Assembly: GCA_964474085.1 (NCBI GenBank)
Contig: CAYYRJ010000013.1
Location: 797 to 64,796 of the forward strand
From: an uncultured Planctomycetales bacterium
Lineage (GTDB): Bacteria; Omnitrophota; Gorgyraeia; Zapsychrales; JANLHA01
Length of the DNA: 64,000 bases
Direction: 5' to 3'
Position 1 is the first letter of the stretch. Each line of letters starts with the position of its first letter. The notes below the pieces were generated by a model that saw nothing but the letters and a program-made list of their open reading frames with translations, made no database searches and was not told where the DNA came from. A program made the translations under genes and the position numbers. This document shows positions 40,624-63,867 of the stretch, in pieces.

Positions 40624-40923
40624 TGCCATGTGCAAGTTTTATTTACCGACTTGGGAAAGTCCTTTTAGGCTCAATTGTTTTGCGCCTCTATGGCGCCATT
40701 CGCCTTAAAAGGGCTTCCCGAGTCGGGGCTTCATTTGCCATCGCGTTATTTAGCTAGATTTGAAAAATTTTTAAAGAAAATTTGCCTTTCTCGGGGAGTT
40801 TCTTTATACTTATGTGTATCTTATCTGTATTTATCTTTTGTAGCATCTCCATTTGACAGTATTTATTTGTTTTATCTAAAGAGGAAAAACTCTGTGCAGT
40901 CTCTCTTTCATCGAGATAGTCTA

Positions 40924-43704
40924 ATGTTTTTCAGAAAAATAATCAGCAGTTTTATTGTGTTGACGTTTTTGACGTCGCTTGTCGTCGTTCCGGCAGGGGG
41001 CCAGGTTTTTCTGGATGTCGCAACGTCCATTAACGCAAATGCTGGGTATCAGCCCCCCGTACTTTTAGGACTTAAAATCCATCCCGAAAATCCGCTTTTG
41101 TTTGATTTTATCGTCGACCAAGGGCAATCGAAACTTTCGACAGACGAACTAAAAGAGGAAACAACTAAGCTCGTCAAATATTTTCTCGCGGCGTTAACCA
41201 TTCCGGACAAAGAAGTTTGGGTCAACCTTTCGCCGACCGAAAAAGATCGAATTATTCCTGATGTTTTGGGCCAGACGACGATGGGCAAAACGATGCTTGA
41301 GCAGGATTATGTTTTAAAGCAATTGGCCGCCTCGCTCACCAATCCCGAAACGGATTTGGGGAAGAAATATTGGGAGCAGGTTAATGGGGCAAGGACGCTA
41401 GACGTTAGACGTTGGACGTTGGAAAAAACACCCAGCGTCCAGCCTCCAGCGACCAGCGATTTTAACAAGGTTTGGATCATGCCGGAAAAGGCCGAAGTTT
41501 TGGAAAGTAACGGGATTGTTTTGGTTGGCGAAAAGCGGTTGAAGGTGATGCTGGATGAGGAATATCAAGCCGTAGGGGCGTATTGCAATACGCCCCTACA
41601 GAAAAATGTTATTTCCTCCCAAATTTTCCGCACCACCATCCTTCCAACCATCGAAAAGGCCGTCAATGAAGGCAAAGAATTTGCCGACGTGCGTCAGATT
41701 TACAATTCCGTTATCCTCGCCGCATGGTACAAAAAGGCTTTAAAAGAAAGTTTGCTGGGCAAGATTTATACTGACAAAGGCAAAGTTGCCGGTGTTGAAA
41801 CCGACGACAAAACGATGAAACAACGCATTTATGAGCAATATTTAGCCGCCTTTAAAAAAGGCGCGTACAACCTGATAAAAGAAGAAGCCGACGAAAATGG
41901 TGATCTAATTCCGAGGAAATATTTTAGTGGGGGAATTGAGATTGCTGCATTTGGCGATGGGGCCAGGTCTTCATTGACAGAAAGAACCGTTTCATTACGA
42001 CAAGTAGAAGGGAGGATTGAAGGGATTAGTTCCAGCGTCGCTGTGACGGTCCAATTAGCCGCTACTAAAGATGAGTCTGGCGTGGTTTCCAGTGCCGCAA
42101 CGCAAGGAGAAGATGTTATTTTCGCCGCCGCCTCAAACTCTCTTCGACAAGATCCCAGCAGAAAAGTCAGTTATGGAAATACAAAATACCATTTGAGCAC
42201 AGTTATTAAAATTTTAGAAGAACTTGTTAATTATTGGGATGGTCAAGAGGATAATCCTGATAAATTTGCTACTCATGGCGTGCACGGCAAAATAATCACG
42301 AGTGTTCAACTGCTCTCTGCTCCCGGCGTTACTTTTTCGCTTGATGATATCCGTTTTAAATCCATATTTTTGGATAATTTAGTTAAACAGTTGAAAGTTC
42401 AAAATATCAAACGTCTTGACCCGATTAGGCTCTTTCAAGTTTGGGTTTCTCAAGATTTCAAATTAAATTTTGCTATTTCTAATTCTCAGAGAGTTAAAAA
42501 TATTACCATCGAGGATGCTAGGGCGATTTTTTTTAGAGACCTTTTACCGCTTATTAGGGATGAACTTCAAAAGTATTCGGACAATGCTGACCCCCAGCAA
42601 GCCTATTGGAGGACTGTTTCGGAAAGGACATCGGTTTTACTCAGTGGCCCTGTACAAAGAATCCAAGCAGTTTTGGATGCAAGCTATGATAAATTTCATC
42701 AAACAGGACACTTTCATGATTTAAACGCAATTTTATCGGATCCCTCCAGGGGCAGGTTGCGAGAAAGCTTTTCGAATATCCAAAATGTTATCGCCGAGGT
42801 TTTGGGTGACACTCAGAGTTTTGCATCCCAAAAAGCAGTGTTAGTGGGACAGCAAACCTATCCTCAGACAGAGAAAGCGGCCTATGTCAACGAAAGTTTT
42901 ATTCACGCAACACTTGTGAGTGATATTTTTTCAAGTTGGAAACAGAATGTGCGATTTCGAGAAAAACTAGCTTCAGAAACTTCACGAGTAGAAAAGCCAC
43001 TTGTTCAGGTCAAAGGTGTCCATCTGATGCCTGATTTAAGTGTTGCTTTTGAATTACAGGAAGTCAGGTGGAGACAGAACTCGAATGTTTTGAAAACCGT
43101 TAAAGAAACAGCAGCCCAACTAGCAGAAGATAACGGCCAAGCGCCTCGATATTTTCCAGACACGCTTGCCGCAACTGTTGCATATTTGTTTGGAAATGAT
43201 ATCAGTCGCAGCCAGCTTTTAGAACTTAATAGTCGTTTTAGTGAAATTAATATTCAATTGCAAAAAGATCCGATTACGTTTTTTATTGACGAAATGCAGT
43301 TGCAAAGCGGAACAAAAAAAGGATTTGTGGTTACTCGCAGTAAAACGCTCAAATTTTCCGCTTCGAGCGGGGTTGATGACAAGGTGAATGTTGCCTCAGC
43401 GCCCGTCGGAGGGCTTGACCGCCAAGTCGGCGGTATCGACTTTGACCCGACGAGCATGAATTTGCAAATTAAGCGCGACGGACGTGGTGTGCCGCTGCCA
43501 TTGCCGCAACAGAATTTGGAACAGATCAATATTCAGGGCTTGTTTCCCGTTATCATCAACATTACACCAATCAATGCGCAGACTTTGCCGATCTTTTTAG
43601 GGTTTACCCGCCCAAATTCTGGCGGTGGGCAGTCCTTTGAATCTTTTGGCGGGCAAGTGCCCAAAGAACCGGCCAAGGAAATTGAACAAGTCGCGGGGAC
43701 CTGA
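40924..43704 (+). CDS. large secreted protein A (926 aa). Its N-terminal ~400 aa domain is paralogous to protein B. Function unknown.
   Basis: Signal peptide at MFFRKIISSFIVLTFLTSLVVVPAGG. The N-terminal domain aligns with ORF 46345-50502 (WVNLSP...DRIIP; KVWI(M/V)P(E/D)KA). Contains an in-frame REP and an in-frame heptad-repeat hairpin. The ORF-track start 40675 is probably upstream junk. Confidence 0.7.
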   Translation: MFFRKIISSFIVLTFLTSLVVVPAGGQVFLDVATSINANAGYQPPVLLGLKIHPENPLLFDFIVDQGQSKLSTDELKEETTKLVKYFLAALTIPDKEVWVNLSPTEKDRIIPDVLGQTTMGKTMLEQDYVLKQLAASLTNPETDLGKKYWEQVNGARTLDVRRWTLEKTPSVQPPATSDFNKVWIMPEKAEVLESNGIVLVGEKRLKVMLDEEYQAVGAYCNTPLQKNVISSQIFRTTILPTIEKAVNEGKEFADVRQIYNSVILAAWYKKALKESLLGKIYTDKGKVAGVETDDKTMKQRIYEQYLAAFKKGAYNLIKEEADENGDLIPRKYFSGGIEIAAFGDGARSSLTERTVSLRQVEGRIEGISSSVAVTVQLAATKDESGVVSSAATQGEDVIFAAASNSLRQDPSRKVSYGNTKYHLSTVIKILEELVNYWDGQEDNPDKFATHGVHGKIITSVQLLSAPGVTFSLDDIRFKSIFLDNLVKQLKVQNIKRLDPIRLFQVWVSQDFKLNFAISNSQRVKNITIEDARAIFFRDLLPLIRDELQKYSDNADPQQAYWRTVSERTSVLLSGPVQRIQAVLDASYDKFHQTGHFHDLNAILSDPSRGRLRESFSNIQNVIAEVLGDTQSFASQKAVLVGQQTYPQTEKAAYVNESFIHATLVSDIFSSWKQNVRFREKLASETSRVEKPLVQVKGVHLMPDLSVAFELQEVRWRQNSNVLKTVKETAAQLAEDNGQAPRYFPDTLAATVAYLFGNDISRSQLLELNSRFSEINIQLQKDPITFFIDEMQLQSGTKKGFVVTRSKTLKFSASSGVDDKVNVASAPVGGLDRQVGGIDFDPTSMNLQIKRDGRGVPLPLPQQNLEQINIQGLFPVIINITPINAQTLPIFLGFTRPNSGGGQSFESFGGQVPKEPAKEIEQVAGT
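41402..41469. repeat. heptad minisatellite arranged as an inverted pair (long hairpin), in-frame inside the protein A gene
   Basis: aaggacg ctagacg ttagacg ttggacg ttgg, then aaaaaacaccc, then cagcgtc cagcctc cagcgac cagcg. Encodes GARTLDVRRWTLEKTPSVQPPATS. Confidence 0.6.
41572..41599. repeat. REP element embedded in-frame in the protein A gene
   Basis: gtaggggcgtattgcaatacgcccctac, encoding VGAYCNTPL. Confidence 0.8.
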
Positions 43705-46344: not shown

Positions 46345-49300
46345 ATGGATATGAAAAAAAAGATCAGCATTTTTATGCTGGCTGTGTTTATGGTGCAGAC
46401 CGTCGTCCCGACGTGTTTTGCGCAAATGGCGCTTGAAAGCCGTCTTTTGCCTACGTCGATGGGGGTGCTTAGCAACCATTTTCAACCGCCGGTTTTAAGT
46501 GCGATTAAGATAGACGCAGCTGATCCGTTTCATTTGGAATTTGTTATTGATCCTGGAACTTCGACGGGAAACGGTGAAGAACTCAAAGGGGAGACGACGC
46601 GGCTTGTTAATTATTTTTTGGCGGCCTTAACATTACCAGAGAAGGACTTGTGGGTTAATTTGTCACCGTATGAGGTGGATCGAATTATTCCTGCTGAATT
46701 TGGGACAACTCAGATGGGCCGCGATCTTTTGGCGCAGGATTATTTGTTAAAACAGATAACGGCTTCTTTGATGGTTCCCACCGGGGACGTTGGCAAAAAG
46801 TTTTGGGATGAAATTAATCGTCAGGTGAGGGCGAAATACGGGCAAGTCGAGATTTCGGTAAACACATTAAATAAAGTGTGGATTGTGCCGGATAAGGCTC
46901 AGATTATTCAGGAGAGAGGCGTTGCTTTTGTCAGTGAGAGCCGTTTAAAAGTTTTATTAGAGTCGGATTATTTGGCGTTTGAAAAAAATGCTCTGCGAGA
47001 AGTCGATAGCCGCAAAGAGGATGTAAAGCAGAAGTCTCTTAACGATCAGGAAAAGACCAAAGAAATTCTTCGAGAAATTGTCCTTCCTGTTCTTGAAAAG
47101 GAAGTTAATGAAGGGCGTAATTTTGCACCTTTGCGTCAAGTGTATCATTCGCTTATTCTCGCGGCATGGTATAAACAAAAAATTAAAAGCGGCCTGCTGG
47201 CAGCGGTTTATGTTGATCAAAAAAAAGTTGCCGGAATTGATAGTGTTGATCCGCAAATGGCTCAGGGAATATGGGCGCAATACGAAGAATTGTTTCGAAA
47301 AGGGGTTTATAACTCTGTCAGAGAAGAGTTGGACCCGGTTTCGCAAGAAATGATTCCGCGCAAGTATTTTATGGGAGGTTTTGGCTTTACTGCTATTGAT
47401 AAGGCGCTTGTTACATCGTCGGGGATTACGTCTGTTCATCGAACATTTGCGGGAATTCTTGCCGGGGTGCAGCTTTTGTCTGCCCTGCCGTCTTTGAGCT
47501 ATGCACAAGATGCCGCAAATACCGATGCGGCAGTTAACCCGGGCCTTGTTATTGAAAAAGTTCCTGCGGCTGACCCGCGATCAGCGTTTGAGCAACAGAG
47601 AAAAGATTATTGGCTTAACGTTGCGCAGTCTGACTCGGATCGCGTTTTTTCTCGCGCCGTTGAGTTTATGGACGAACCGTTTGCAATTGAAATTCTTAAA
47701 GAAGCGGTTAGAAGTGAAAATACTTTGTCCCTTCAGGGAGGCGTTTTTCGTGATGCTTACCGTTATTTGGAATATGAAAAGGGGTGGGAATTTTTTGAGT
47801 GGTTGGCAAAAAATTATGATCGAGCGGGGTTTGTATTGGCCTCACCTGATTTTGCTAAGATAAAATCTCCCGAGCGTGTTCTGGAAATTGTTGCCAGGTT
47901 TTCGTCGGTAGAACTTTTGAATTTTATGAGTAATACGGAGAGTATGTTGAGAAATGAAGAGATGATTCGCCAGATGATAGACAAATCATCGTCGCAGAGG
48001 CTGCGTTTGATAAAGCAGATATCACAGTTGCCGTTAAAGTGGCCAGAAATAAAGTTGATGGCAGCGCTTATTCCAATGATTTTAAACAATGAAATATCAG
48101 TTTTGCAGGCGCAAGAATTGACAGGGGACGTAGACCGGTATATGAAAACTTTGTTTTCGATGTTAAAAAACCCAGCGTATGCCAGTGATCGCGATGCCAT
48201 TATTTTTCGGCTTATTGATTCATATTTTTTGTCTCTTTATTTTTATGGCACGATTTATCCCGCAAAATGGGAGCCGGCCGCTATTGACGCTTACTTGGAA
48301 AATTTTTCGACGCAGGACTTGTATTACTCGTGGGTTGGTTTGGTGCCGGGTGAACTTTATAATACCGTATTTTCCAAGATGATTGAAAAGTTAAAAGCAG
48401 ATTCAGTGAATTTTTATGATCTCCCCGAAAGTTTATTTTTTCGTGTCAATGAATCAATTTTAAACACCACAGATATGCAGAAAAAAGATTTGATGTCGGT
48501 GCTGAGTGTTAGTGATCAATTTAGATTGGTTGATCAACTTTTGAACAGATTCGAGCGGGCGCGCGCAAACAAGAACAGTTCAGTCGAGCTTTTTAAAGCT
48601 GTTTCTGTTTTTTTAGCTGAAATTAACGCGCAGGGATTTCAACCTCAAGGTCGGGAAGCAGTCGAGTTTAACCGCCTTACCGTTAAACATCAAGCGCTTC
48701 TAAACGCTTTTTTAGTTGAGATTGGAAAAGACCCGCAAGCGTTTATTGGGGAATTTAGACGAGTAAAGGACCCGGGTGTATTTGCAAAAGATCCAATCGT
48801 AAAGGTTTTTTCTAAGATTAATAATTTTTCTTTTTCGGGGATGTTAAATTTTAACCAGCAAACTATCTCAACCGATAAACTCCGGCTGGATATGGTTCTC
48901 TTATTAGATGATTTGCTTAAGGAGCGTTTGACCGTAAAAGACGCGGCCGGGATTGTTTTAGACAAAGGTCGTTTTCTTCGTCAATTAAATGACATTGCGT
49001 CCCGCTCTGCGCATTTTGCGGAAACGGGAATCAATAAACGTTTAGGTGAAATTTATATGGAGCTTATCCGCAATATTAATAATTTGCACGAATCACCCGA
49101 CGCTATAAGGTTTAAATCAGTCGAGTCGTTTTCTTCAGAATATCTTTATCGCGTTATGGTTTATGGAGAAGATGAAGTTGTCTATACAACTACTTTTAAT
49201 GGGCTGTTTAACCGTTTTTTGAAGGCTGTCGATGCGGAAGGTATTTCTTTGGATGTTGTTTTGGATAGAGTAAAAGATTTTAAATTTAGAAATTTTTTCA

Positions 49301-50502
49301 GGCTTGCCGTAACGTATGGCAGACAGGAAGAATTTTTGAAAAAAATGAGTCCGCAGAGGCGGAAAGATTTTTTAGTGCGTTTTATTGCCGGTTTAAGTGA
49401 AGAAAAAGATATGGTGTCCGAGGCGGCAATTGTTGCAGATGTGATTAACCAATTGCAGGATGAGCAGTTGGTTCAACCGCTGGCCGAGCTTATCAAAACA
49501 CAGTACCAAAAATTTGAGAACGATCGGCAAAAGCGTATTGTTTATGGTTTGCTTGCCGGATTATTTAGAGATAAACCTGTTTCCGCTGACAGAGAGTGGT
49601 TTGTCCAGATGGGTGAAGAATATAAATTATTGATTAGTAAAGAGTTGTCCTCTGCCCAGCTTTTTGATGCTAGCGGTGAAAATGTTCAGCGTTATGTTTT
49701 TTATGACGATAGCGATGCCAAGGCGTCTTTTGCGCATTTTATTGCCAGCTACAAGAATGATCCTAATTGGCGTACCGTTGCTTACGAGCAGTATGTTGAG
49801 GTAACTTCGGTTTATGGCCACAAGGTAACGATATTAGCCAACAAACCCAGAGATATCGAGAAAAGTAATTTTGCGGTCGATGAAGCTTTCAAGGTAAAAA
49901 ATAAAGTGCCCTCAGTTATTGCTCATCGAGGGCATAGTTATTTTTTCAATGGGACGATAGGCTATGTAACCCCGGATGTTGTTTTTGTTGGCGTAGGAGC
50001 TTGCGGAGGCGCCAAGAATGTCGGTCAGTTATTGGAAAATTCACCGCAAGCCCAGATTGCGGCAACAAGAGGGGTGGGCACGATGAGGATCAATGACCCT
50101 TTGTTTAAGCTGATTAATAATGATATTCGTACGCAAGGCTCTGTGTATTGGGAAAGTGTTTGGACAAGAGCGGAAAAACAGGCATGGAGCAAGACCAATG
50201 AATGGGGCAAGTATGTCGCGCCGCATAGAAACGTCATTGAGAGTTTTTTGAAATCGTATGATAATTTGATGCGATCTTCGGCCAGCTCGACTGTTGGTGA
50301 TTTGGCAACCAAAGGCGGGATTGATTTAAATGCTGTCGACGCGGCTTTGCGTATAAATTCGAGTACTCAAACTGCAGAGCTTGCGATTGATCCGGTATTG
50401 TTCGAGCAATACCGGGTATCGCCCGGATTTTATCCGGAGATTAAATTTATGCGTCCGGTTAAAAATGTGATAGAGTATTTAACCGCAGCGGACACAAAAT
50501 AA
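46345..50502 (+). CDS. giant secreted protein B (1385 aa). N-terminal domain paralogous to protein A. Long alpha-helical middle region. C-terminal His/Cys-containing module.
   Basis: Signal peptide. Roughly 400 aa align with protein A. Internal hydrophobic, signal-like segment (FAGILAGVQLLSALPSLSYAQD). C-terminal region with HRGHSYF...GVGACGG. Confidence 0.7.
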   Translation: MDMKKKISIFMLAVFMVQTVVPTCFAQMALESRLLPTSMGVLSNHFQPPVLSAIKIDAADPFHLEFVIDPGTSTGNGEELKGETTRLVNYFLAALTLPEKDLWVNLSPYEVDRIIPAEFGTTQMGRDLLAQDYLLKQITASLMVPTGDVGKKFWDEINRQVRAKYGQVEISVNTLNKVWIVPDKAQIIQERGVAFVSESRLKVLLESDYLAFEKNALREVDSRKEDVKQKSLNDQEKTKEILREIVLPVLEKEVNEGRNFAPLRQVYHSLILAAWYKQKIKSGLLAAVYVDQKKVAGIDSVDPQMAQGIWAQYEELFRKGVYNSVREELDPVSQEMIPRKYFMGGFGFTAIDKALVTSSGITSVHRTFAGILAGVQLLSALPSLSYAQDAANTDAAVNPGLVIEKVPAADPRSAFEQQRKDYWLNVAQSDSDRVFSRAVEFMDEPFAIEILKEAVRSENTLSLQGGVFRDAYRYLEYEKGWEFFEWLAKNYDRAGFVLASPDFAKIKSPERVLEIVARFSSVELLNFMSNTESMLRNEEMIRQMIDKSSSQRLRLIKQISQLPLKWPEIKLMAALIPMILNNEISVLQAQELTGDVDRYMKTLFSMLKNPAYASDRDAIIFRLIDSYFLSLYFYGTIYPAKWEPAAIDAYLENFSTQDLYYSWVGLVPGELYNTVFSKMIEKLKADSVNFYDLPESLFFRVNESILNTTDMQKKDLMSVLSVSDQFRLVDQLLNRFERARANKNSSVELFKAVSVFLAEINAQGFQPQGREAVEFNRLTVKHQALLNAFLVEIGKDPQAFIGEFRRVKDPGVFAKDPIVKVFSKINNFSFSGMLNFNQQTISTDKLRLDMVLLLDDLLKERLTVKDAAGIVLDKGRFLRQLNDIASRSAHFAETGINKRLGEIYMELIRNINNLHESPDAIRFKSVESFSSEYLYRVMVYGEDEVVYTTTFNGLFNRFLKAVDAEGISLDVVLDRVKDFKFRNFFRLAVTYGRQEEFLKKMSPQRRKDFLVRFIAGLSEEKDMVSEAAIVADVINQLQDEQLVQPLAELIKTQYQKFENDRQKRIVYGLLAGLFRDKPVSADREWFVQMGEEYKLLISKELSSAQLFDASGENVQRYVFYDDSDAKASFAHFIASYKNDPNWRTVAYEQYVEVTSVYGHKVTILANKPRDIEKSNFAVDEAFKVKNKVPSVIAHRGHSYFFNGTIGYVTPDVVFVGVGACGGAKNVGQLLENSPQAQIAATRGVGTMRINDPLFKLINNDIRTQGSVYWESVWTRAEKQAWSKTNEWGKYVAPHRNVIESFLKSYDNLMRSSASSTVGDLATKGGIDLNAVDAALRINSSTQTAELAIDPVLFEQYRVSPGFYPEIKFMRPVKNVIEYLTAADTK

Positions 50503-56568: not shown

Positions 56569-58272
56569 ATGCCCGCACTTCTTACCCAAAAATTTTGGCA
56601 AGTTCGCAACCCTGATCCCTTTCTCCAAGTTTATTTAAGCAATGCTTTAAAAGTCCATCCACTGATCGCCCAGGTGCTGGCCAATCGTGGGATTACCAGC
56701 GCCGATGAGGGAAAAGAGTTTTTGTCCGCTGACTTAAACACTTTGCATGACCCTTTTCTTCTTAAAGATATGGACCGGGCTGTTTTGCGGATCCGGCAAG
56801 CGAAAGAGAACAAGGAAAAAGTTTTGGTTTTTGGCGATTATGACGTCGATGGGGTCACGTCGTCTGCCCTTTTGTATAAAATTTTTACCCGCTTAGGAAT
56901 TGCGGTGAGCAATCACATTCCGCATCGTATGTCCGACGGTTATGGCTTGAATGATTCGATCGGCCAAATTGCCAAAGAGGCGGGGATCAAACTTTTAATT
57001 GCCGTCGATTGCGGGATTACCGCAATTCGTGAAGTCGCACTTTTAAATGCGCTAGGCATTGACGTTATTATTCTGGACCATCACGAGCCGTCGGTGGAAG
57101 GTCTGCCTGCGGCATTTGCGATTGTGGATCCCAAACGCCATGATTGCAGTTATCCGTTTAAACATTTAGCTTCCGTCGGGCTGGTTGCAAAACTTTCGCA
57201 GGCACTTTTTGGAAAAGTCCCGGAAGAATACTTGGATTTGATTGCGCTGGGCACGATTGCGGATGTGGTGCCACTGCGTGGGGAAAACCGGATTTTTGTC
57301 AAAAACGGAATGCCGAAGTTAGGCGAAACCAAAAATTTTGGTCTTGCCGCTTTAATCGACGGCGCTAAGATCCGCGGCAAAAAGTTTAGGCCTCATTATG
57401 TTGGTTTTATTTTAGGCCCGCGCATTAATGCGACGGGGCGCATGGGCTCGGCTCACAAATCTCTTGAGCTTCTTTTGTCGTGCGATGGGCCGACGGCTTT
57501 TGGTTTGGCGCAAGAGCTTGAAGAATTTAACAGCGAACGTCAGCGACTTCAAAAGCAAGTTGTCGAAGAAGCGATGCAGATGATCGAACAGGAAATCAAT
57601 TTTAAAGAACATAAAGTGATTGTCTTATGCCAACAAGGTTGGCACAAAGGCGTTTTGGGCATTGTTGCTTCGCGTGTGGCCGAAACGTATTATCGGCCGA
57701 CGATTATTATTTCGCTGGAAAATGGCGTCGGGACAGCGTCCGCGCGGTCGATTGAAGGCTTTCACTTAAATGAAGCGCTTGAGCATTGCTCGGAGATTTT
57801 AGTGACCTTTGGCGGACACAAACTTGCCGCTGGCCTAACGATTAAAGAGGAACATGTCGAGAATTTTAGACGTAAGATCAACGATTTTGCCAAAGATATT
57901 TTGGAAATCCGCAATATGATTCCCACCATCTCCATTGACGCAGAAGTTTCGCTCTCTTCGCTGAGCTTGGAAGTCGCCCAGCTGATTGAAAGTTTAGAGC
58001 CCTACGGCGAGGGCAATGCGACCCCGGTGTTTTGTTCTCGCCAGCTGGTGGTCAAAAGTCCGCCGAGCTTGATGGGCAAGGACACGATTAAATTTTGGGT
58101 AAGCGACGGGCAAAGCAGCATTTCGGCGGTGGGTTTTGGCATGGCCAAGTACGCGGATTTAGTCCGTCCCGGCGCCCAAGTCGACCTTGCCTATGAATTG
58201 ACCATTGATGATTGGAACAAAAGCCCCGTGCCACAGCTAAAGCTCAAGGACATTCGCGAGAGCGGGGGGTAG
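56569..58272 (+). CDS. recJ: single-stranded-DNA-specific exonuclease RecJ
   Basis: DHH motifs (VFGDYDVDGVTS, DHH at ILDHHEP). DHHA1 GGH motif. 567 aa. Confidence 0.9.
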   Translation: MPALLTQKFWQVRNPDPFLQVYLSNALKVHPLIAQVLANRGITSADEGKEFLSADLNTLHDPFLLKDMDRAVLRIRQAKENKEKVLVFGDYDVDGVTSSALLYKIFTRLGIAVSNHIPHRMSDGYGLNDSIGQIAKEAGIKLLIAVDCGITAIREVALLNALGIDVIILDHHEPSVEGLPAAFAIVDPKRHDCSYPFKHLASVGLVAKLSQALFGKVPEEYLDLIALGTIADVVPLRGENRIFVKNGMPKLGETKNFGLAALIDGAKIRGKKFRPHYVGFILGPRINATGRMGSAHKSLELLLSCDGPTAFGLAQELEEFNSERQRLQKQVVEEAMQMIEQEINFKEHKVIVLCQQGWHKGVLGIVASRVAETYYRPTIIISLENGVGTASARSIEGFHLNEALEHCSEILVTFGGHKLAAGLTIKEEHVENFRRKINDFAKDILEIRNMIPTISIDAEVSLSSLSLEVAQLIESLEPYGEGNATPVFCSRQLVVKSPPSLMGKDTIKFWVSDGQSSISAVGFGMAKYADLVRPGAQVDLAYELTIDDWNKSPVPQLKLKDIRESGG

Positions 58273-58287
58273 GATCTTTAAAATTCT

Positions 58288-58313
58288 GTAGGGGCGTATT
58301 GCCATACGCCCTT
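58288..58313. repeat. REP element (GTAG-headed palindrome, ttgcca-centre variant)
   Basis: gtaggggcgtattgccatacgccctt. 8-bp stem gggcgtat/atacgccc. Confidence 0.75.
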
Positions 58314-58324
58314 CTTCAAAAGCT

Positions 58325-59365
58325 ATGCCTACCAAATCAAAACAATCCATTATTAAATCTGTAGACATTAGCAGTTATTCGTCGCTGGTTAAGCTGGTGC
58401 GGGAAGAATTTGCGAGTTTGGAATTTTTTGTCAAAAGCCGAACGGTACAGGGATATTGGCAGGTCGGAAAGTTCGTTCACGACCATCTTTTGCACCACCA
58501 AGAACGCGCAGAATACGGCAATCAACTCTTTGAGCGGCTGGGAAAAGATTCGGGAAGAGATTCAAGTACTTTGCAAAAAATGTTGAGGTTTTATCGGACG
58601 TATCCAATTCTGGCAACGTTGCCAGAATTGACGTGGAGTCATTTTTTGGCTTTAATGGCTGTTAAAGATAAAGGGGAAAGAATTCGGCTTGAAAAAGAAA
58701 TTATTCAAAAAGAGTGGGATGTCCGTAAGCTCCAGAAATATTTGAATATTAAACGCAAATTGGTTCCTGCCGGTGCGAATTCGTCTGTCCCGCAATTAAA
58801 GTTTACCCGTGGCAGGCCGCATATTTACCAGATTATAAAAGCGGTCCCGCCGCTTTTGGCCCAGCATCCCTTGGTTTTGGATTTGGGCTTTCGTTTACAA
58901 GATACAATTCCCGCCAATGAGCTGGGTTTAAAAGAGCAGGACTTTGTGGAACTTATTATTAAGGGAAATAAAATCGTCGGTGTAGGAACGACCCAAGTCG
59001 AAAAGGACGAACTATTCACTTACGCGGCGAGCGTCCAAAAAGTTGTCGACGGGGATACCTTGATTGCGACGCTGGATTTTAAAAGCACTTTTAGCATTAG
59101 TCAAAAAATGCGTCTGCGCGGGATTGATTGCCCGGAGCTCGACACTGAGGAAGGCCAGAAGGCCAAACGTTTTGTCGAAGATCGCCTGAAGAATTGTGAT
59201 TTTATTATTGTGAAAACTTACAAAGACCGCACCGACCGTTTTGACCGGTATTTGGCGGACATTTTTTATTGGCCCGGCGAAGCTGATGAAAACAAAGTTG
59301 CCCGTCAGGGGAAATATCTTAATCAGGAGCTTTTGGACGAACGTCTGGCGGTGGTGTACGTGTGA
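58325..59365 (+). CDS. fusion protein: YhcG/DUF1016-type N-terminal domain plus C-terminal staphylococcal-nuclease (SNase/thermonuclease)-like domain
   Basis: The N-terminus resembles the DUF1016 N-domain (YWQVGKFV..., TLPELTWSHFLALMAV). The C-terminus resembles SNase (DGDTLIATLD...MRLRGIDCPE...ERLAVVY). Flanked by REPs. Confidence 0.6.
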   Translation: MPTKSKQSIIKSVDISSYSSLVKLVREEFASLEFFVKSRTVQGYWQVGKFVHDHLLHHQERAEYGNQLFERLGKDSGRDSSTLQKMLRFYRTYPILATLPELTWSHFLALMAVKDKGERIRLEKEIIQKEWDVRKLQKYLNIKRKLVPAGANSSVPQLKFTRGRPHIYQIIKAVPPLLAQHPLVLDLGFRLQDTIPANELGLKEQDFVELIIKGNKIVGVGTTQVEKDELFTYAASVQKVVDGDTLIATLDFKSTFSISQKMRLRGIDCPELDTEEGQKAKRFVEDRLKNCDFIIVKTYKDRTDRFDRYLADIFYWPGEADENKVARQGKYLNQELLDERLAVVYV

Positions 59366-59370
59366 TTTTT

Positions 59371-59395
59371 GGGACGTATTGCCATACGCCCTTAC
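59371..59395. repeat. REP element variant
   Basis: gggacgtattgccatacgcccttac followed by the conserved tail acaaatg. Confidence 0.7.
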
Positions 59396-59544: not shown

Positions 59545-60063
59545 ATGTCAAAGATTATCATCCCGTTAGAGCGTATCGAAAAGAAGATCTATTTGATTCG
59601 AGGACACAAAGTCATGTTCGATTTTGATTTGGCGGAACTTTACGAAGTGCCAACCAAGCGTCTTAAAGAGCAGGTTAAACGTAATATCGGTAGATTTCCG
59701 GATGATTTTATGTTTCAATTGACCCTTGAGGAAGTCAAAATCTTGAGGCCGCAAATTGCGACCTCAAGTTGGGGCGGTTCACGTTATTTGCCATATGTTT
59801 TTACTGAACAAGGGACGGCCATGTTATCGAGCGTATTAAGCAGTCAACGGGCTATCGCTGTTAACATTGCTATAATCCGTGCGTTCGTTAAACTGCGGGA
59901 AATGATGGCGACCCATCATGATCTTGCAAAAAAGATCAATGACCTTGAAAGACAGTACAAAGATCACGATCAAAAGATTGTTATGATTTACGAAGCGATA
60001 CGTAATCTCATGACTCCGGCGCAGGAGCCAGCTAAGCGTAAAATTGGATTTCATGCGGATTAA
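59545..60063 (+). CDS. ORF6N-domain DNA-binding protein (mobile-element associated), copy 1
   Basis: IRGHKVMFDFDLAELYEVPTKRLKEQVKRNIGRFPDDFMFQLT matches the ORF6N pattern. GGAGG RBS. Confidence 0.7.
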   Translation: MSKIIIPLERIEKKIYLIRGHKVMFDFDLAELYEVPTKRLKEQVKRNIGRFPDDFMFQLTLEEVKILRPQIATSSWGGSRYLPYVFTEQGTAMLSSVLSSQRAIAVNIAIIRAFVKLREMMATHHDLAKKINDLERQYKDHDQKIVMIYEAIRNLMTPAQEPAKRKIGFHAD

Positions 60064-60067
60064 AAAA

Positions 60068-60094
60068 CAGGGGCGTAGGAGAATACGCCCCTAG
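60068..60094. repeat. REP-like palindrome (ggagaa-loop variant)
   Basis: caggggcgtaggagaatacgcccctag. 9-bp stem. Identical copy at 63218. Confidence 0.7.
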
Positions 60095-60180
60095 ATAACA
60101 CGAAAGAAATTTTCTTATAGAATATTATATTAATTAATCCGTACGGCTATCCCCACCGTCTTTAATCGAAGGGAGATGCC

Positions 60181-60717
60181 ATGCGTGATCTAAAACGAAA
60201 ATCCATTCGGCTAAAAACATTTAACTACTCTCAGGTTGGCGCTTATTACATTACTCTCTGTTCTTTGAATCGCACATGCTTATTTGGTGAAATATGTGAT
60301 GATCAGGTAACATTAAGCCCTTTTGGAAAAATTGTTTTCTATGAATGGTTAAATACACCGATTCTACGACCCAATATTCAATTGGATGAATTTATTGTCA
60401 TGCCGAATCATTCCCATGGGATTATTATAATTAATGAAACCTGTAGGGGCGTATTGCAATACGCCCCTACAAATATGTTTCGTTCACCATTGCAAACCGT
60501 TGGGGCGATTGTACGCGGCTTTAAATCTGCGGTAACAAATAAAATCAACATATTAAGAAAATCGCCAGGTCAACCTGTTTGGCAACGAAATTATTTTGAA
60601 CACATTATTCGCGATGATTCTGATATGGAACGCATTCGGGAATATATTTACAATAATCCAAAGAATTGGGAAACAGATGAAAATAATCAGGAGAGATCAA
60701 TAGGGTCTGCGGATTGA
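60181..60717 (+). CDS. REP-associated tyrosine transposase (RAYT; IS200/IS605-like HuH Y1 transposase), copy 1
   Basis: 178 aa. HuH motif MPNHSHGII. Catalytic Tyr block WQRNYFEHIIRD. Cognate GTAG-headed REP palindromes nearby and inside the gene. Confidence 0.8.
   Translation: MRDLKRKSIRLKTFNYSQVGAYYITLCSLNRTCLFGEICDDQVTLSPFGKIVFYEWLNTPILRPNIQLDEFIVMPNHSHGIIIINETCRGVLQYAPTNMFRSPLQTVGAIVRGFKSAVTNKINILRKSPGQPVWQRNYFEHIIRDDSDMERIREYIYNNPKNWETDENNQERSIGSAD
60443..60470. repeat. REP element (perfect palindrome) embedded in-frame in the RAYT gene
   Basis: gtaggggcgtattgcaatacgcccctac, encoding RGVLQYAPT. Confidence 0.8.
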
Positions 60718-62007: not shown

Positions 62008-62067
62008 CAGGGTGGGGCAAGGTTGCCGGCGAGGGCATTAAGTTCAATAAAAATAGGAGTGAAAAAT

Positions 62068-62493
62068 ATGGTTGAGAATAAAAAACCATTGATTGGCATT
62101 GGGTTTCTTGTTGCATTTGCGTTTGTGTGGGGAATAATTTCGTACTTTTCAATGGCAATGTTTGTAGGGAGCATGAGTGGGAGATTAGCCCCTGTTGACT
62201 ACGTGCGCCCGTGGACTAGTTATTTTTTGTTCAGTAAAGATTTTCTAATAAATATTTTGATTTGGGTAATAATCGTTTTGCCGTTTATTTCTGGGATCGG
62301 TCTTTTAATCGGAAAGAATTGGGCGCGGATATTGTATATTGCCTGTTGTTCTGCTCAAATGTTTTGGGTTTTATTTAATATTGTCAAGAATTTTTCTGTC
62401 GGTGCTATTCCGTTTATTTTACTTTACGTGTGTATTTTTTCTTTTCCGATTTGGTATTTGAATCGTTCAAAAGTCAAAGAACAATTTAAGTAG
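62068..62493 (+). CDS. small integral membrane protein, hypothetical
   Basis: Four predicted transmembrane segments. Its stop codon lies in the GTAG head of a REP. Confidence 0.45.
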   Translation: MVENKKPLIGIGFLVAFAFVWGIISYFSMAMFVGSMSGRLAPVDYVRPWTSYFLFSKDFLINILIWVIIVLPFISGIGLLIGKNWARILYIACCSAQMFWVLFNIVKNFSVGAIPFILLYVCIFSFPIWYLNRSKVKEQFK

Positions 62494-62703: not shown

Positions 62704-63213
62704 ATGTCAAAGATTGTTATTGAACAAGAATGGATTGAACGCAAAATTTATTTTATTCGGGGTAAGAAAGTCATGGTTGATCGTGATTTAGCCGAATTAT
62801 ACGAGGTCCCAACGAAATCATTAAATCTTGCAGTTAGGCGTAATGCAGATCGTTTTCCACAAGATTTCATGTTTCAATTGACAGCACAGGAAGCAGAAAT
62901 CTTGAGGTTTCAATCTGAAACCTCAAGTTGGGGTGGGCAACGATACTTGCCGTATGTTTTTACTCAATAGGGTGTTGCTATGCTTTCGGGTGTCTTAAGG
63001 AGCAAGCGTGCGGTTAATGTCAATATAGAAATTATGCGTGCTTTTGTCCGCTTACGACAAATTTTATCTGTACATAAGGAGTTGGATCGCAAACTTCAAG
63101 ATTTAGAAAAAAAATACGACAATCAGTTTAAAGCTGTCTTTGATGCTATTCGTCAGTTGATGACTCCGGCGCAGGAGCCAGCTAAGCGCAAAATTGGATT
63201 TCATGCGGATTAA
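62704..63213 (+). pseudogene. ORF6N-domain protein, copy 2, interrupted by in-frame TAG at 62971-62973
   Basis: Same frame as copy 1 on both sides of the stop (62704-62970 and 62980-63213). Copy 1 has caaggg where copy 2 has tagggt. Confidence 0.7.
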
Positions 63214-63217
63214 AAAA

Positions 63218-63244
63218 CAGGGGCGTAGGAGAATACGCCCCTAG
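63218..63244. repeat. REP-like palindrome (ggagaa-loop variant)
   Basis: Identical to 60068-60094. Confidence 0.7.
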
Positions 63245-63330
63245 ATAACACGAAAGAAATTTTCTTATAGAATATTATATTAATTAATCCGTACGGCTAT
63301 CCCCACCGTCTTTAATCGAAGGGAGATGCC

Positions 63331-63867
63331 ATGCGTGATCTAAAACGAAAATCCATTCGGCTAAAAACATTTAACTACTCTCAGGTTGGCGCTTATTACA
63401 TTACTCTCTGTTCTTTGAATCGCACATGCTTATTTGGTGAAATATGTGATGATCAGGTAACATTAAGCCCTTTTGGAAAAATTGTTTTCTATGAATGGTT
63501 AAATACACCGATTCTACGACCCAATATTCAATTGGATGAATTTATTGTCATGCCGAATCATTTTCATGGGATTATCATAATTAATGAAACTGGTAGGGGC
63601 GTATTGCAATACGCCCCTACCAAAGCATTCCGTTCACCGTCTCAAACGATTGGATCGATTGTGCGTGGGTTTAAAGGTGCGGTAACAAATAAAATTAATA
63701 CGTTGAGAAAATCGCCAGGTCAACCTATTTGGCAACGAAATTATTTTGAACACATTATTCGTGATGATTTTGACATGGAACGCATTCGGGAATATATTTG
63801 CAATAATCCAAAGAATTGGGAAACAGATGAAAATAATCAGGAGAGATCAATAGGGTCTGCGGATTGA
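63331..63867 (+). CDS. REP-associated tyrosine transposase (RAYT), copy 2
   Basis: 178 aa, about 93% identical to copy 1. HuH motif MPNHFHGII. WQRNYFEHIIRD block. Internal REP. Confidence 0.8.
   Translation: MRDLKRKSIRLKTFNYSQVGAYYITLCSLNRTCLFGEICDDQVTLSPFGKIVFYEWLNTPILRPNIQLDEFIVMPNHFHGIIIINETGRGVLQYAPTKAFRSPSQTIGSIVRGFKGAVTNKINTLRKSPGQPIWQRNYFEHIIRDDFDMERIREYICNNPKNWETDENNQERSIGSAD
63593..63620. repeat. REP element embedded in-frame in RAYT copy 2
   Basis: gtaggggcgtattgcaatacgcccctac. Confidence 0.8.

Follow-up and report, generated by a model that had tools for sequence, protein, structure and literature searches.

A protein family joining a YhcG-type DUF1016_N domain to a staphylococcal nuclease-like domain through a family-specific beta-barrel in Omnitrophota and neighbouring phyla

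A 64,000 nucleotide stretch of a contig from an uncultured Planctomycetales bacterium (GenBank CAYYRJ010000013.1; phylum Omnitrophota in GTDB), referred to here as the window, carries at 58325..59365 (plus strand, stop codon included) an ATG-initiated gene for a 346 amino acid (aa) protein in which a DUF1016(YhcG)-type N-terminus is fused to a staphylococcal nuclease (SNase)-like C-terminus, as an earlier reading of the same sequence (the original prediction) had proposed. A family-specific beta-barrel lies between these two domains and is a third domain that had been missed. The protein is a true domain-swap variant within a known, uncharacterised class, and it is not unique. Because the ratio of nonsynonymous to synonymous divergence (dN/dS) is ~0.18 relative to an 88% identical orthologue, and because hundreds of full-length homologues are found, the gene is a real coding sequence.

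Pfam searches with curated bit cut-offs placed DUF1016_N (PF17761) at aa 36-141 (E=7.6e-18, 65.4 bits versus a cut-off of 32.8) and SNase (PF00565) at aa 261-345 (E=4e-7, 30.9 bits versus a cut-off of 21), and the motifs on which the fusion had been proposed are present (DGDTL at aa 242-246, RLRGIDCPE at aa 263-271). YhcG_C, the PD-(D/E)XK domain of canonical YhcG, was sought down to E<=1 and gave no match in the 346 aa protein, whereas the same Pfam search of a canonical plasmid YhcG, included as a control, recovered both DUF1016_N (E=3e-46) and YhcG_C (E=1.7e-46). Because it lacks the defining PD-(D/E)XK domain, which was looked for, and shares the N-domain alone, the protein is not a strict member of the YhcG family. 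An AlphaFold2 model of the full-length protein, computed from a family alignment of 44 sequences (A1), reached a predicted local distance difference test score (pLDDT) of 87.7 and a predicted template modelling (TM) score of 0.70, and resolved three modules: helices at aa 18-146, all-beta strands at aa 167-223, and an SNase-type unit at aa 232-338. No hydrophobic, signal-like stretch was seen on inspection of the N-terminus (MPTKSKQSIIKSVDISSYSSLVKLVREEF).

The SNase domain (aa 232-346; 59018..59362, plus strand) is identified by threshold, fold and active site alike, and the protein is a member of the SNase superfamily. In addition to the Pfam match, PHROG 452, a phage endonuclease family, aligned over aa 215-345 (E=1.8e-21), and a phmmer search of PDB sequences aligned aa 232-329 to the Staphylococcus aureus nuclease with E about 1e-4. 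The modelled secondary structure of aa 232-338 (strand-strand-strand-helix-strand-strand-helix-helix) corresponds to a five-stranded barrel of the oligonucleotide/oligosaccharide-binding (OB) fold plus three helices, and Foldseek superimposed the model on the S. aureus nuclease over ~118 columns (E=1.7e-6, target-normalised TM 0.67, root-mean-square deviation 2.6-2.8 Å), so that structure prediction recovered the fold anticipated by the original prediction. Matches to the NCBIfam equivalogs EcnA and NucI fell below their cut-offs, and the protein is therefore not one of these specific enzymes. Alignment to 5jav and 4eqo equated D244 with D21, R263 with R35, D268 with D40, C269 with T41, E271 with E43 and R308 with R87. 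Among 73 full-length members from 70-odd loci, D242, D244, R263 and R308 are present in all 73 and E271 in 72, while position 268 carries Asp in 67 members and Asn in the other 6. As the equivalents of the catalytic and Ca2+-ligand residues are conserved in this way, the active site is intact across the family, which is consistent with a putative Ca2+-dependent nuclease activity. Of the three modules the SNase domain is conserved best, its mean pairwise identity of 0.51 exceeding that of the N-domain (0.35) and of the middle domain (0.27). Two positions depart from the classical enzyme. The backbone carbonyl of SNase Thr41 binds Ca2+; at this position the window protein has Cys269 (59129-59131, within the IDCPE motif), which is nearly invariant (at least 90% of the 44 sequences), and the SNase Tyr85 position is occupied by Phe306.

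The helical N-terminal domain (aa 17-146; 58373..58762, plus strand) is presumed to bind DNA or to target the enzyme. Compared by hhalign with canonical YhcG, which was represented by a shallow profile built from sequences 87-100% identical, the 73-member family aligned over aa 17-145 only (probability 99.2%, E=5e-20). PADLOC models of PDC-S02, the class of canonical YhcG, matched approximately aa 18-141 at best (E=3.5e-22) and aa 18-187 at their longest, and never the full-length protein. Pfam HTH_ParB, a helix-turn-helix (HTH) family, overlaps the domain at 19.0 bits, under its cut-off of 22.6, and a profile of the domain searched against PDB aligned with the HTH region of Noc (7ng0, E=1.4e-3) and with Spo0J (E up to 0.2). 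These similarities weakly suggest that the N-domain binds DNA, and hint at how it may contact it. No Pfam match to a ParBc-type domain (the N-terminal CTPase domain of ParB) was found in the 346 aa protein.

The middle domain (aa ~150-230; 58772..59014, plus strand) has no Pfam match and was recognised from the AlphaFold2 strands at aa 167-223, which have pLDDT values of 81-94 in the full-length model and 79 when the domain is modelled alone; G163, D186 and F189 are invariant. A comparison of the domain modelled alone with PDB folds returned nothing significant (best E=0.59), and the weak matches are all OB-type barrels (eIF1A, IF-1, cold-shock domains and the proteasome Rpt OB domain). Its profile, searched against 1.84 billion representative proteins, retrieved 117 representatives that are essentially all from this family; these are either proteins of ~330-365 aa with the barrel at ~145-240 or N-terminally truncated fragments. 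An SNase domain follows the barrel in all nine genuine proteins checked, and one further match, to a YadA adhesin, was spurious. The barrel and the SNase domain thus form a fixed unit, which points to a single origin of the architecture. The barrel is possibly an OB-like element for nucleic acid binding or oligomerisation.

Other identities were considered for the middle domain. That it is a degenerate PD-(D/E)XK domain had been prompted by tblastn and BLASTP alignments with canonical YhcG that reached query aa 277, and by the resemblance of its DPYILDFLG to PLVLDLGF. This idea was rejected, as the profile alignment with YhcG ends at aa 145 and the all-beta domain has weak fold matches to OB-type barrels only; together with the missing YhcG_C match, these results uphold the proposal that a PD-(D/E)XK C-terminus is absent. 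An AbrB-like swapped hairpin was also rejected, the sole PDB sequence-profile match being insignificant (E=0.24). A degenerate duplicate of the SNase barrel was considered as well; an hhalign comparison of the middle domain with that barrel gave a probability of 52% over 28 columns, and the aligned segments are non-equivalent strands in the models.

A word-indexed protein search, with clusters formed at 90% identity and counted at E<=1e-3, returned 572 protein clusters that match the DUF1016_N-SNase protein. Nearly all of the best 120 of these are 310-390 aa long and carry PF17761 with or without PF00565; those named by their source come from Candidatus Omnitrophota metagenome-assembled genomes (MAGs) and bear the names 'thermonuclease family protein', 'DUF1016 N-terminal domain-containing protein' or 'endonuclease YncB'. 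A scan of GTDB, with one genome per species, located 361 encoding stretches. The fusion is unusual in that it departs from canonical YhcG; at the same time it defines a large family that is auto-annotated by NCBI and already included in automatic catalogues. No paper describing the DUF1016_N-SNase architecture was found, and literature searches on EcnA, SNase defence effectors and PF17761/DUF1016_N returned nothing relevant in the library covered. Taxonomy and copy number were established for the best 80 of the 361 stretches, which come from 60 assemblies. These are mostly Omnitrophota, including MAGs labelled 'uncultured Planctomycetales', and otherwise Latescibacterota, Opitutaceae/Verrucomicrobiota, Spirochaetota, Elusimicrobiota and one Syntrophaceae MAG. 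Two or three loci are present in 17 of the 60 assemblies, for example in MHGQ01 (L008, L023, L030), DPIG01 (L011, L033, L041) and MHGP01 (L020, L066, L073). Same-genome copies usually belong to different subfamilies, with roughly 35-57% identity to the window protein, which indicates that the paralogy is old; no second family copy is present in the 64 kb window.

Several family loci show irregular copies. A partial family ORF (open reading frame) lies directly upstream of a full-length copy at L011 (7371-9026), L045 (7423-9014) and L066 (7643-9041), and in the Latescibacterota locus L055 (8028-9062) the gene is split into ORFs of 119 and 190 aa; such cases may reflect tandem fragments, frameshifted pseudogenes or artefacts of start calling. 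In a comparison of two related genomes (assemblies JACRHQ01 and JACRHP01), one carries a single family gene between the gene blocks c20-c22 and c47-c49 (L009), and the other carries the same two blocks on different contigs, each abutting its own paralogue (L007 and L012). The latter two are 69% identical to each other and 86% and 73.5% identical to the single L009 copy, and this arrangement indicates that family genes coincide with synteny breakpoints.

Upstream of the gene, the window carries co-directional housekeeping genes (trpB, trpA, M16 peptidase, argS and recJ), and from 58.3 kb on it consists of the nuclease gene followed by a zone of repetitive extragenic palindromic (REP)-like sequences and genes resembling REP-associated tyrosine transposases (RAYT). 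The immediate upstream neighbour is recJ (DHH/DHHA1/RecJ_OB; 56569..58272, plus strand), which is conserved in the three closest genomes. In L085, where the nuclease is 88.4% identical, the order is recJ, a 139 aa ORF (1857-2276) and the nuclease gene, and in L001 (72% identity) it is argS, recJ, Fic, RAYT, three small ORFs and the nuclease gene. RecJ itself is 94.2% (L085) and 82.7% (L001) identical to that of the window. Between the window and L085, recJ has a dS of 0.43 and a dN/dS of 0.08, and the nuclease gene has 0.33 and 0.18, respectively. As recJ synteny is retained and divergence is similar, the gene has been co-inherited vertically with recJ under purifying selection, with turnover around it.

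A REP-like palindrome (GGGCGTATTGCCATACGCCC; 58292..58311), a short hairpin, lies between recJ and the gene, 14 bp before the start codon, and a second (59372..59391), also located by pattern search, lies 7 bp after the stop codon. REPs occupy equivalent flanking positions in L085 (2296 and 3376), while those of L001 do not flank the gene. The original prediction had placed the gene in a 'REP-bounded island' beside mobile-element genes. REPs do flank it, and an ORF6N gene and RAYT-like genes do follow, but the gene is co-inherited vertically with recJ; it lies on the margin of a variable REP/RAYT zone instead of being cargo of an island, so that its status as an island gene had been overstated.

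The interval between recJ and the nuclease gene is a local insertion hotspot. It measures 52 bp and includes a REP in the window (58273-58324), holds the 139 aa ORF in L085, and in L001 (3934-7982) contains five genes: a Fic/PDC-S04-like gene, a RAYT-like gene and ORFs of 294, 141 and 147-156 aa. The last of the L001 ORFs (c46, a predicted membrane protein) is found downstream of the nuclease gene in the window (62023..62493), which points to local rearrangement.

Neighbouring genes were surveyed by calling and clustering 953 ORFs from 81 loci, and no conserved partner, antitoxin or immunity gene was found among them. The largest neighbour cluster, of response regulators, is present at 11 loci, and the small same-strand ORFs that lie within 150 bp upstream at 18 loci fall into 16 different BLAST clusters. 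Recurrent neighbours with a PADLOC class are winged-HTH nucleotidyltransferases, some with an adjacent HEPN gene (8 loci; PDC-M05A/B), ORF6N (5 loci; PDC-S05), AAA_14-DUF4143 (4 loci; PDC-S01), Fic (4 loci; PDC-S04) and Bro-N (4 loci; PDC-S13). LexA-like S24 genes (4 loci), PIN_2 genes (3 loci) and RAYT-like genes (cluster c19; 2 of 81 loci) have no PADLOC class, and SSB genes are present at 3 loci. At least one PDC-type gene is found within ~8 kb at 19 of 75 loci.

The known system closest to this family is YhcG (COG4804; DUF1016_N plus YhcG_C; PADLOC PDC-S02), which a 2005 study predicted to be a PD-(D/E)XK nuclease with a ~200 aa helical N-domain of unknown role and no conserved neighbourhood, and of which five paralogues were noted in Rickettsia (PMC1189080). 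The two have in common a homologous helical N-domain and occurrence as solitary genes with no fixed partner, present as multiple paralogues in some genomes, among restriction-modification (RM), toxin-antitoxin (TA) and defence-candidate genes. They differ in that the PD-(D/E)XK C-terminus (E-D-E(I/L/V)K motif, PMC1189080) is replaced by the private barrel and SNase domain, and the PDC-S02 model match is confined to the N-domain. The YhcG nuclease would be a Mg2+-dependent enzyme of the restriction endonuclease fold, whereas the SNase domain is expected to be a Ca2+-dependent OB-fold enzyme producing 3′-phosphate ends. The ranges differ also, with this family centred on Omnitrophota, Latescibacterota and Opitutaceae and canonical YhcG in Proteobacteria and on plasmids. 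With the SNases and thermonucleases (Nuc, NucH, NucI, YncB; PHROG 452), the protein has in common a complete OB fold with three helices and conserved equivalents of D21, R35, D40, E43 and R87, from which the same catalytic mechanism would be expected; unlike the classical enzymes, the protein has no secretion signal, carries ~230 additional N-terminal residues (the DNA-binding-type and barrel domains), and has Cys in place of T41 and Phe in place of Y85.

Intracellular SNase homologues, including ParB of RK2/RP4, are, as this protein would be, associated with DNA maintenance or conflict and not with secretion; the plasmid proteins are single-domain and plasmid-borne, whereas the protein described here is chromosomal and has three modules. 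With the chromosome-partitioning proteins ParB, Noc and Spo0J the similarity is weak, over the HTH and following helices, and with HTH_ParB below its cut-off, no N-terminal CTPase domain and no par operon context, the protein is not a ParB protein. Unlike a two-gene TA pair or a nuclease-immunity pair, it has no conserved adjacent partner gene, and unlike a REP/RAYT component it shows no consistent co-occurrence with these elements, flanking REPs being confined to the window and L085.

Our preferred reading, to which we give about as much credence as doubt, is that the protein is a stand-alone, DNA-anchored, Ca2+-dependent nuclease of the YhcG-like class of conflict genes, with a restriction-like or abortive action. 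The protein would be cytoplasmic and act alone, with the PD-(D/E)XK domain of YhcG exchanged for the private barrel and the SNase domain. The helical DUF1016_N domain, similar to the HTH of ParB/Noc, would recognise or bind DNA and position the enzyme, and the barrel might contribute nucleic acid contacts or oligomerisation. The SNase domain, whose catalytic residues are observed, would hydrolyse the phosphodiester backbone by the classical Ca2+-dependent mechanism, with the equivalents of D21 and D40 binding the metal, E43 acting as general base, and R35 and R87 holding the phosphate. SNase requires Ca2+ far above the level of the resting cytoplasm, on which ground we speculate that the activity could be latent until the cell is perturbed. 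The gene would belong to the same guild as YhcG/PDC-S02, of solitary nuclease genes in small variable islets with companions such as Fic, ORF6N, Bro-N, AAA_14/DUF4143 and MNT/HEPN genes, and most probably it would attack invading or abnormal DNA in a restriction-like or abortive manner. The family would have arisen once and then diverged into old paralogous subfamilies that have long held fixed positions on the chromosomes of Omnitrophota and of neighbouring phyla.

Genes annotated 'DUF1016 family protein' are 17-fold enriched beside the target genes of programmed inversions and occur inside type I and type II RM loci (PMC9881135), and canonical DUF1016 genes are enriched near RM/BREX-type loci (PMC9881135), which supports the conflict-related role that the protein may be presumed to have. 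PDC-type genes also lie within two genes of the nuclease gene more often than other neighbours do (18 of 31 versus 242 of 785 other ORFs; odds ratio 3.1, Fisher p=0.002); this enrichment is modest, and only clusters recurring in the dataset were annotated. The test treats related loci as independent, which counts against the preferred reading, and further results weigh on the same side. Three quarters of the loci have no recognisable defence-type neighbour, and the case for DNA binding is built from sub-threshold similarity (HTH_ParB under its cut-off, Noc at about 1e-3). The gene behaves as a stable chromosomal resident, with recJ synteny in three genomes, similar dS and purifying selection, and synteny of some paralogues is kept across species (e.g. 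L012/L013 and L045/L046/L060). No full-length relative was found among IMG/VR viral contigs (the best 80 matches cover only aa ~203-346), INPHARED phages or BFVD structures (best query-normalised TM <=0.31), and PLSDB plasmids yielded only canonical YhcG or single-domain matches. YhcG is itself uncharacterised (PMC1189080), and the one representative of PDC-S02 that was tested did not protect against T4, T5 or T7 (bioRxiv 10.1101/2024.09.26.614923). The description 'defence-type nuclease' in the original prediction is favoured by the N-domain match to PDC-S02, the PDC-S05-like neighbour and the enrichment of defence-candidate neighbours, and is disfavoured by the lack of a full-length phage, viral or plasmid copy in the collections searched and of a partner, by the stable locus and by the non-protective PDC-S02 representative; a defence role is plausible.

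A role in housekeeping DNA repair, recombination or nucleoid processing, with the N-domain bringing the SNase domain to damaged or intermediate DNA alongside, for example, RecJ, is the reading that we rank second and regard as doubtful. It would account for the fact that recJ precedes the gene in the window, L085 and L001 and has diverged in step with it, for the purifying selection (dN/dS ~0.18), for the stable synteny of some paralogues across species, for the LexA-like and SSB genes at four and three loci, and for the absence of the family from the phage and plasmid collections searched. The linkage to recJ is lost beyond the closest lineage, however, the LexA, SSB and RecJ neighbours are each rare, and the family is patchy and multi-copy, with subfamilies no more than 35-57% identical to one another, instead of having one orthologue per genome; in addition, the N-domain is common to a gene class that rides in RM and defence loci (PMC9881135). 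Multiple divergent copies per genome and the location of family genes at synteny breakpoints (L009 versus L007/L012) could be expected of a selfish or addictive nuclease, either a TA-like toxin or a homing endonuclease-like gene kept because its loss or absence is costly; a non-specific cytoplasmic nuclease is potentially toxic, and TA-type neighbours (MNT/HEPN, PIN_2) are frequent. We consider this distinctly unlikely, given the lack of a conserved adjacent antitoxin or immunity gene (16 BLAST clusters among the 18 small upstream ORFs), the age of the paralogues with no recent identical copies, the stable chromosomal positions and the single copy in the 64 kb window.

The REPs at the same flanking positions in the window and L085, and the RAYT-like genes within 1-5 kb in the window and L001, would be expected if the protein acted on REP hairpins as an accessory nuclease of the REP/RAYT system or as cargo moved between REPs. 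Against this, RAYT-like genes are present at only 2 of 81 loci, the L001 REPs do not flank the gene, the family is far wider spread than this REP type, and the window REPs simply cluster in its last 6 kb around the RAYT genes, and we judge this explanation highly improbable. A scavenging enzyme, salvaging nucleotides from prey, host or environmental DNA or RNA in the manner of secreted thermonucleases, is suggested by the SNase domain, which is closest to secreted or phage thermonuclease-type enzymes; the N-terminus with no signal peptide or hydrophobic stretch, the fused HTH-type DNA-binding domain, and the multiple paralogues, needless for bulk degradation, leave this reading with very little to recommend it.

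Returning to the preferred reading of a DNA-anchored conflict nuclease, a more specific form of it, in our view rather unlikely, is that these proteins are lineage-expanded, single-gene, Ca2+-gated anti-invader nucleases. DUF1016_N would then be a portable DNA-recognition module for unrelated nuclease folds, the two to three old paralogues per Omnitrophota genome would have different targets, and the SNase domain would be silent at resting Ca2+ and fire on an infection-induced ion influx. If true, this would be the first functional handle on the whole YhcG/PDC-S02 class. Few unexplained genes are found within RM and defence loci as commonly as those for YhcG/DUF1016 proteins. As the same N-module is joined here to a mechanistically unrelated SNase domain, it is probably the N-domain that targets and the C-terminus that serves as an exchangeable effector, and since SNase is a textbook enzyme in its chemistry, metal dependence and mutants, the variant offers an easy entry to what DUF1016_N recognises. 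In Omnitrophota, a phylum with no genetics, the multi-paralogue expansion also informs how small cells organise accessory 'islet' genes. The architecture is no major surprise, nuclease-domain swapping being familiar in conflict systems and the family already being in databases.

Downstream of the nuclease gene, the ORF6N-domain gene (59545..60063, plus strand) matches Pfam ORF6N (E=4.7e-35) and the PADLOC model PDLC04856 (PDC-S05; E=1.1e-60, aa 1-169 of 172). Representatives of PDC-S05 and PDC-M05 protected E. coli from phages, and the PDC-S05 representative tested had a RhuM domain and may not equal the ORF6N protein here (bioRxiv 10.1101/2024.09.26.614923); protection by the PDC-S05 representative was about 1000-fold against T7 and T5 (2025 preprint). 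This gene may be a better defence candidate of the region than the nuclease gene. It is followed by a RAYT-like gene (60181..60717, plus strand), which matches NCBIfam REP_Tyr_transpos (E=7.7e-14, 51.8 bits, under the cut-off of 80 bits) and Pfam Y1_Tnp (21.4 bits). The ORF6N and RAYT-like block is present twice, at 59545-60717 and 62704-63867. The second ORF6N copy is split into 62704..62970 and 62980..63213 and is therefore probably a pseudogene, and the two RAYT-like proteins differ at a handful of residues.

Beyond the pair that flanks the nuclease gene, REP-like palindromes were found at 60071, 62494 and 63221, with further copies within the two RAYT-like genes and a single one at 41576; across the whole window, chance would yield zero such matches. 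Apart from the one at 41576, they cluster in the final 6 kb, around the RAYT genes. Scans for promoters and terminators, and folding of the REP hairpins, gave results no better than shuffled sequence. The 20 nucleotide REP core is in frame inside the RAYT-like genes of the window (60447-60466 and 63597-63616) and of L001 (5287; encoding RGVLQYAPT), and a perfect 28 nucleotide REP palindrome (GTAGGGGCGTATTGCAATACGCCCCTAC; 41572-41599) is in frame in an ORF of 1009 aa (40675..43704, plus strand). These in-frame copies resemble the in-frame Rickettsia palindromic elements. The same ORF and a second very large one (46345..50502, 1385 aa) gave no Pfam or PADLOC match. All gene-like ORFs of at least 150 aa in the window are on the plus strand across the 64 kb, an extreme co-orientation.

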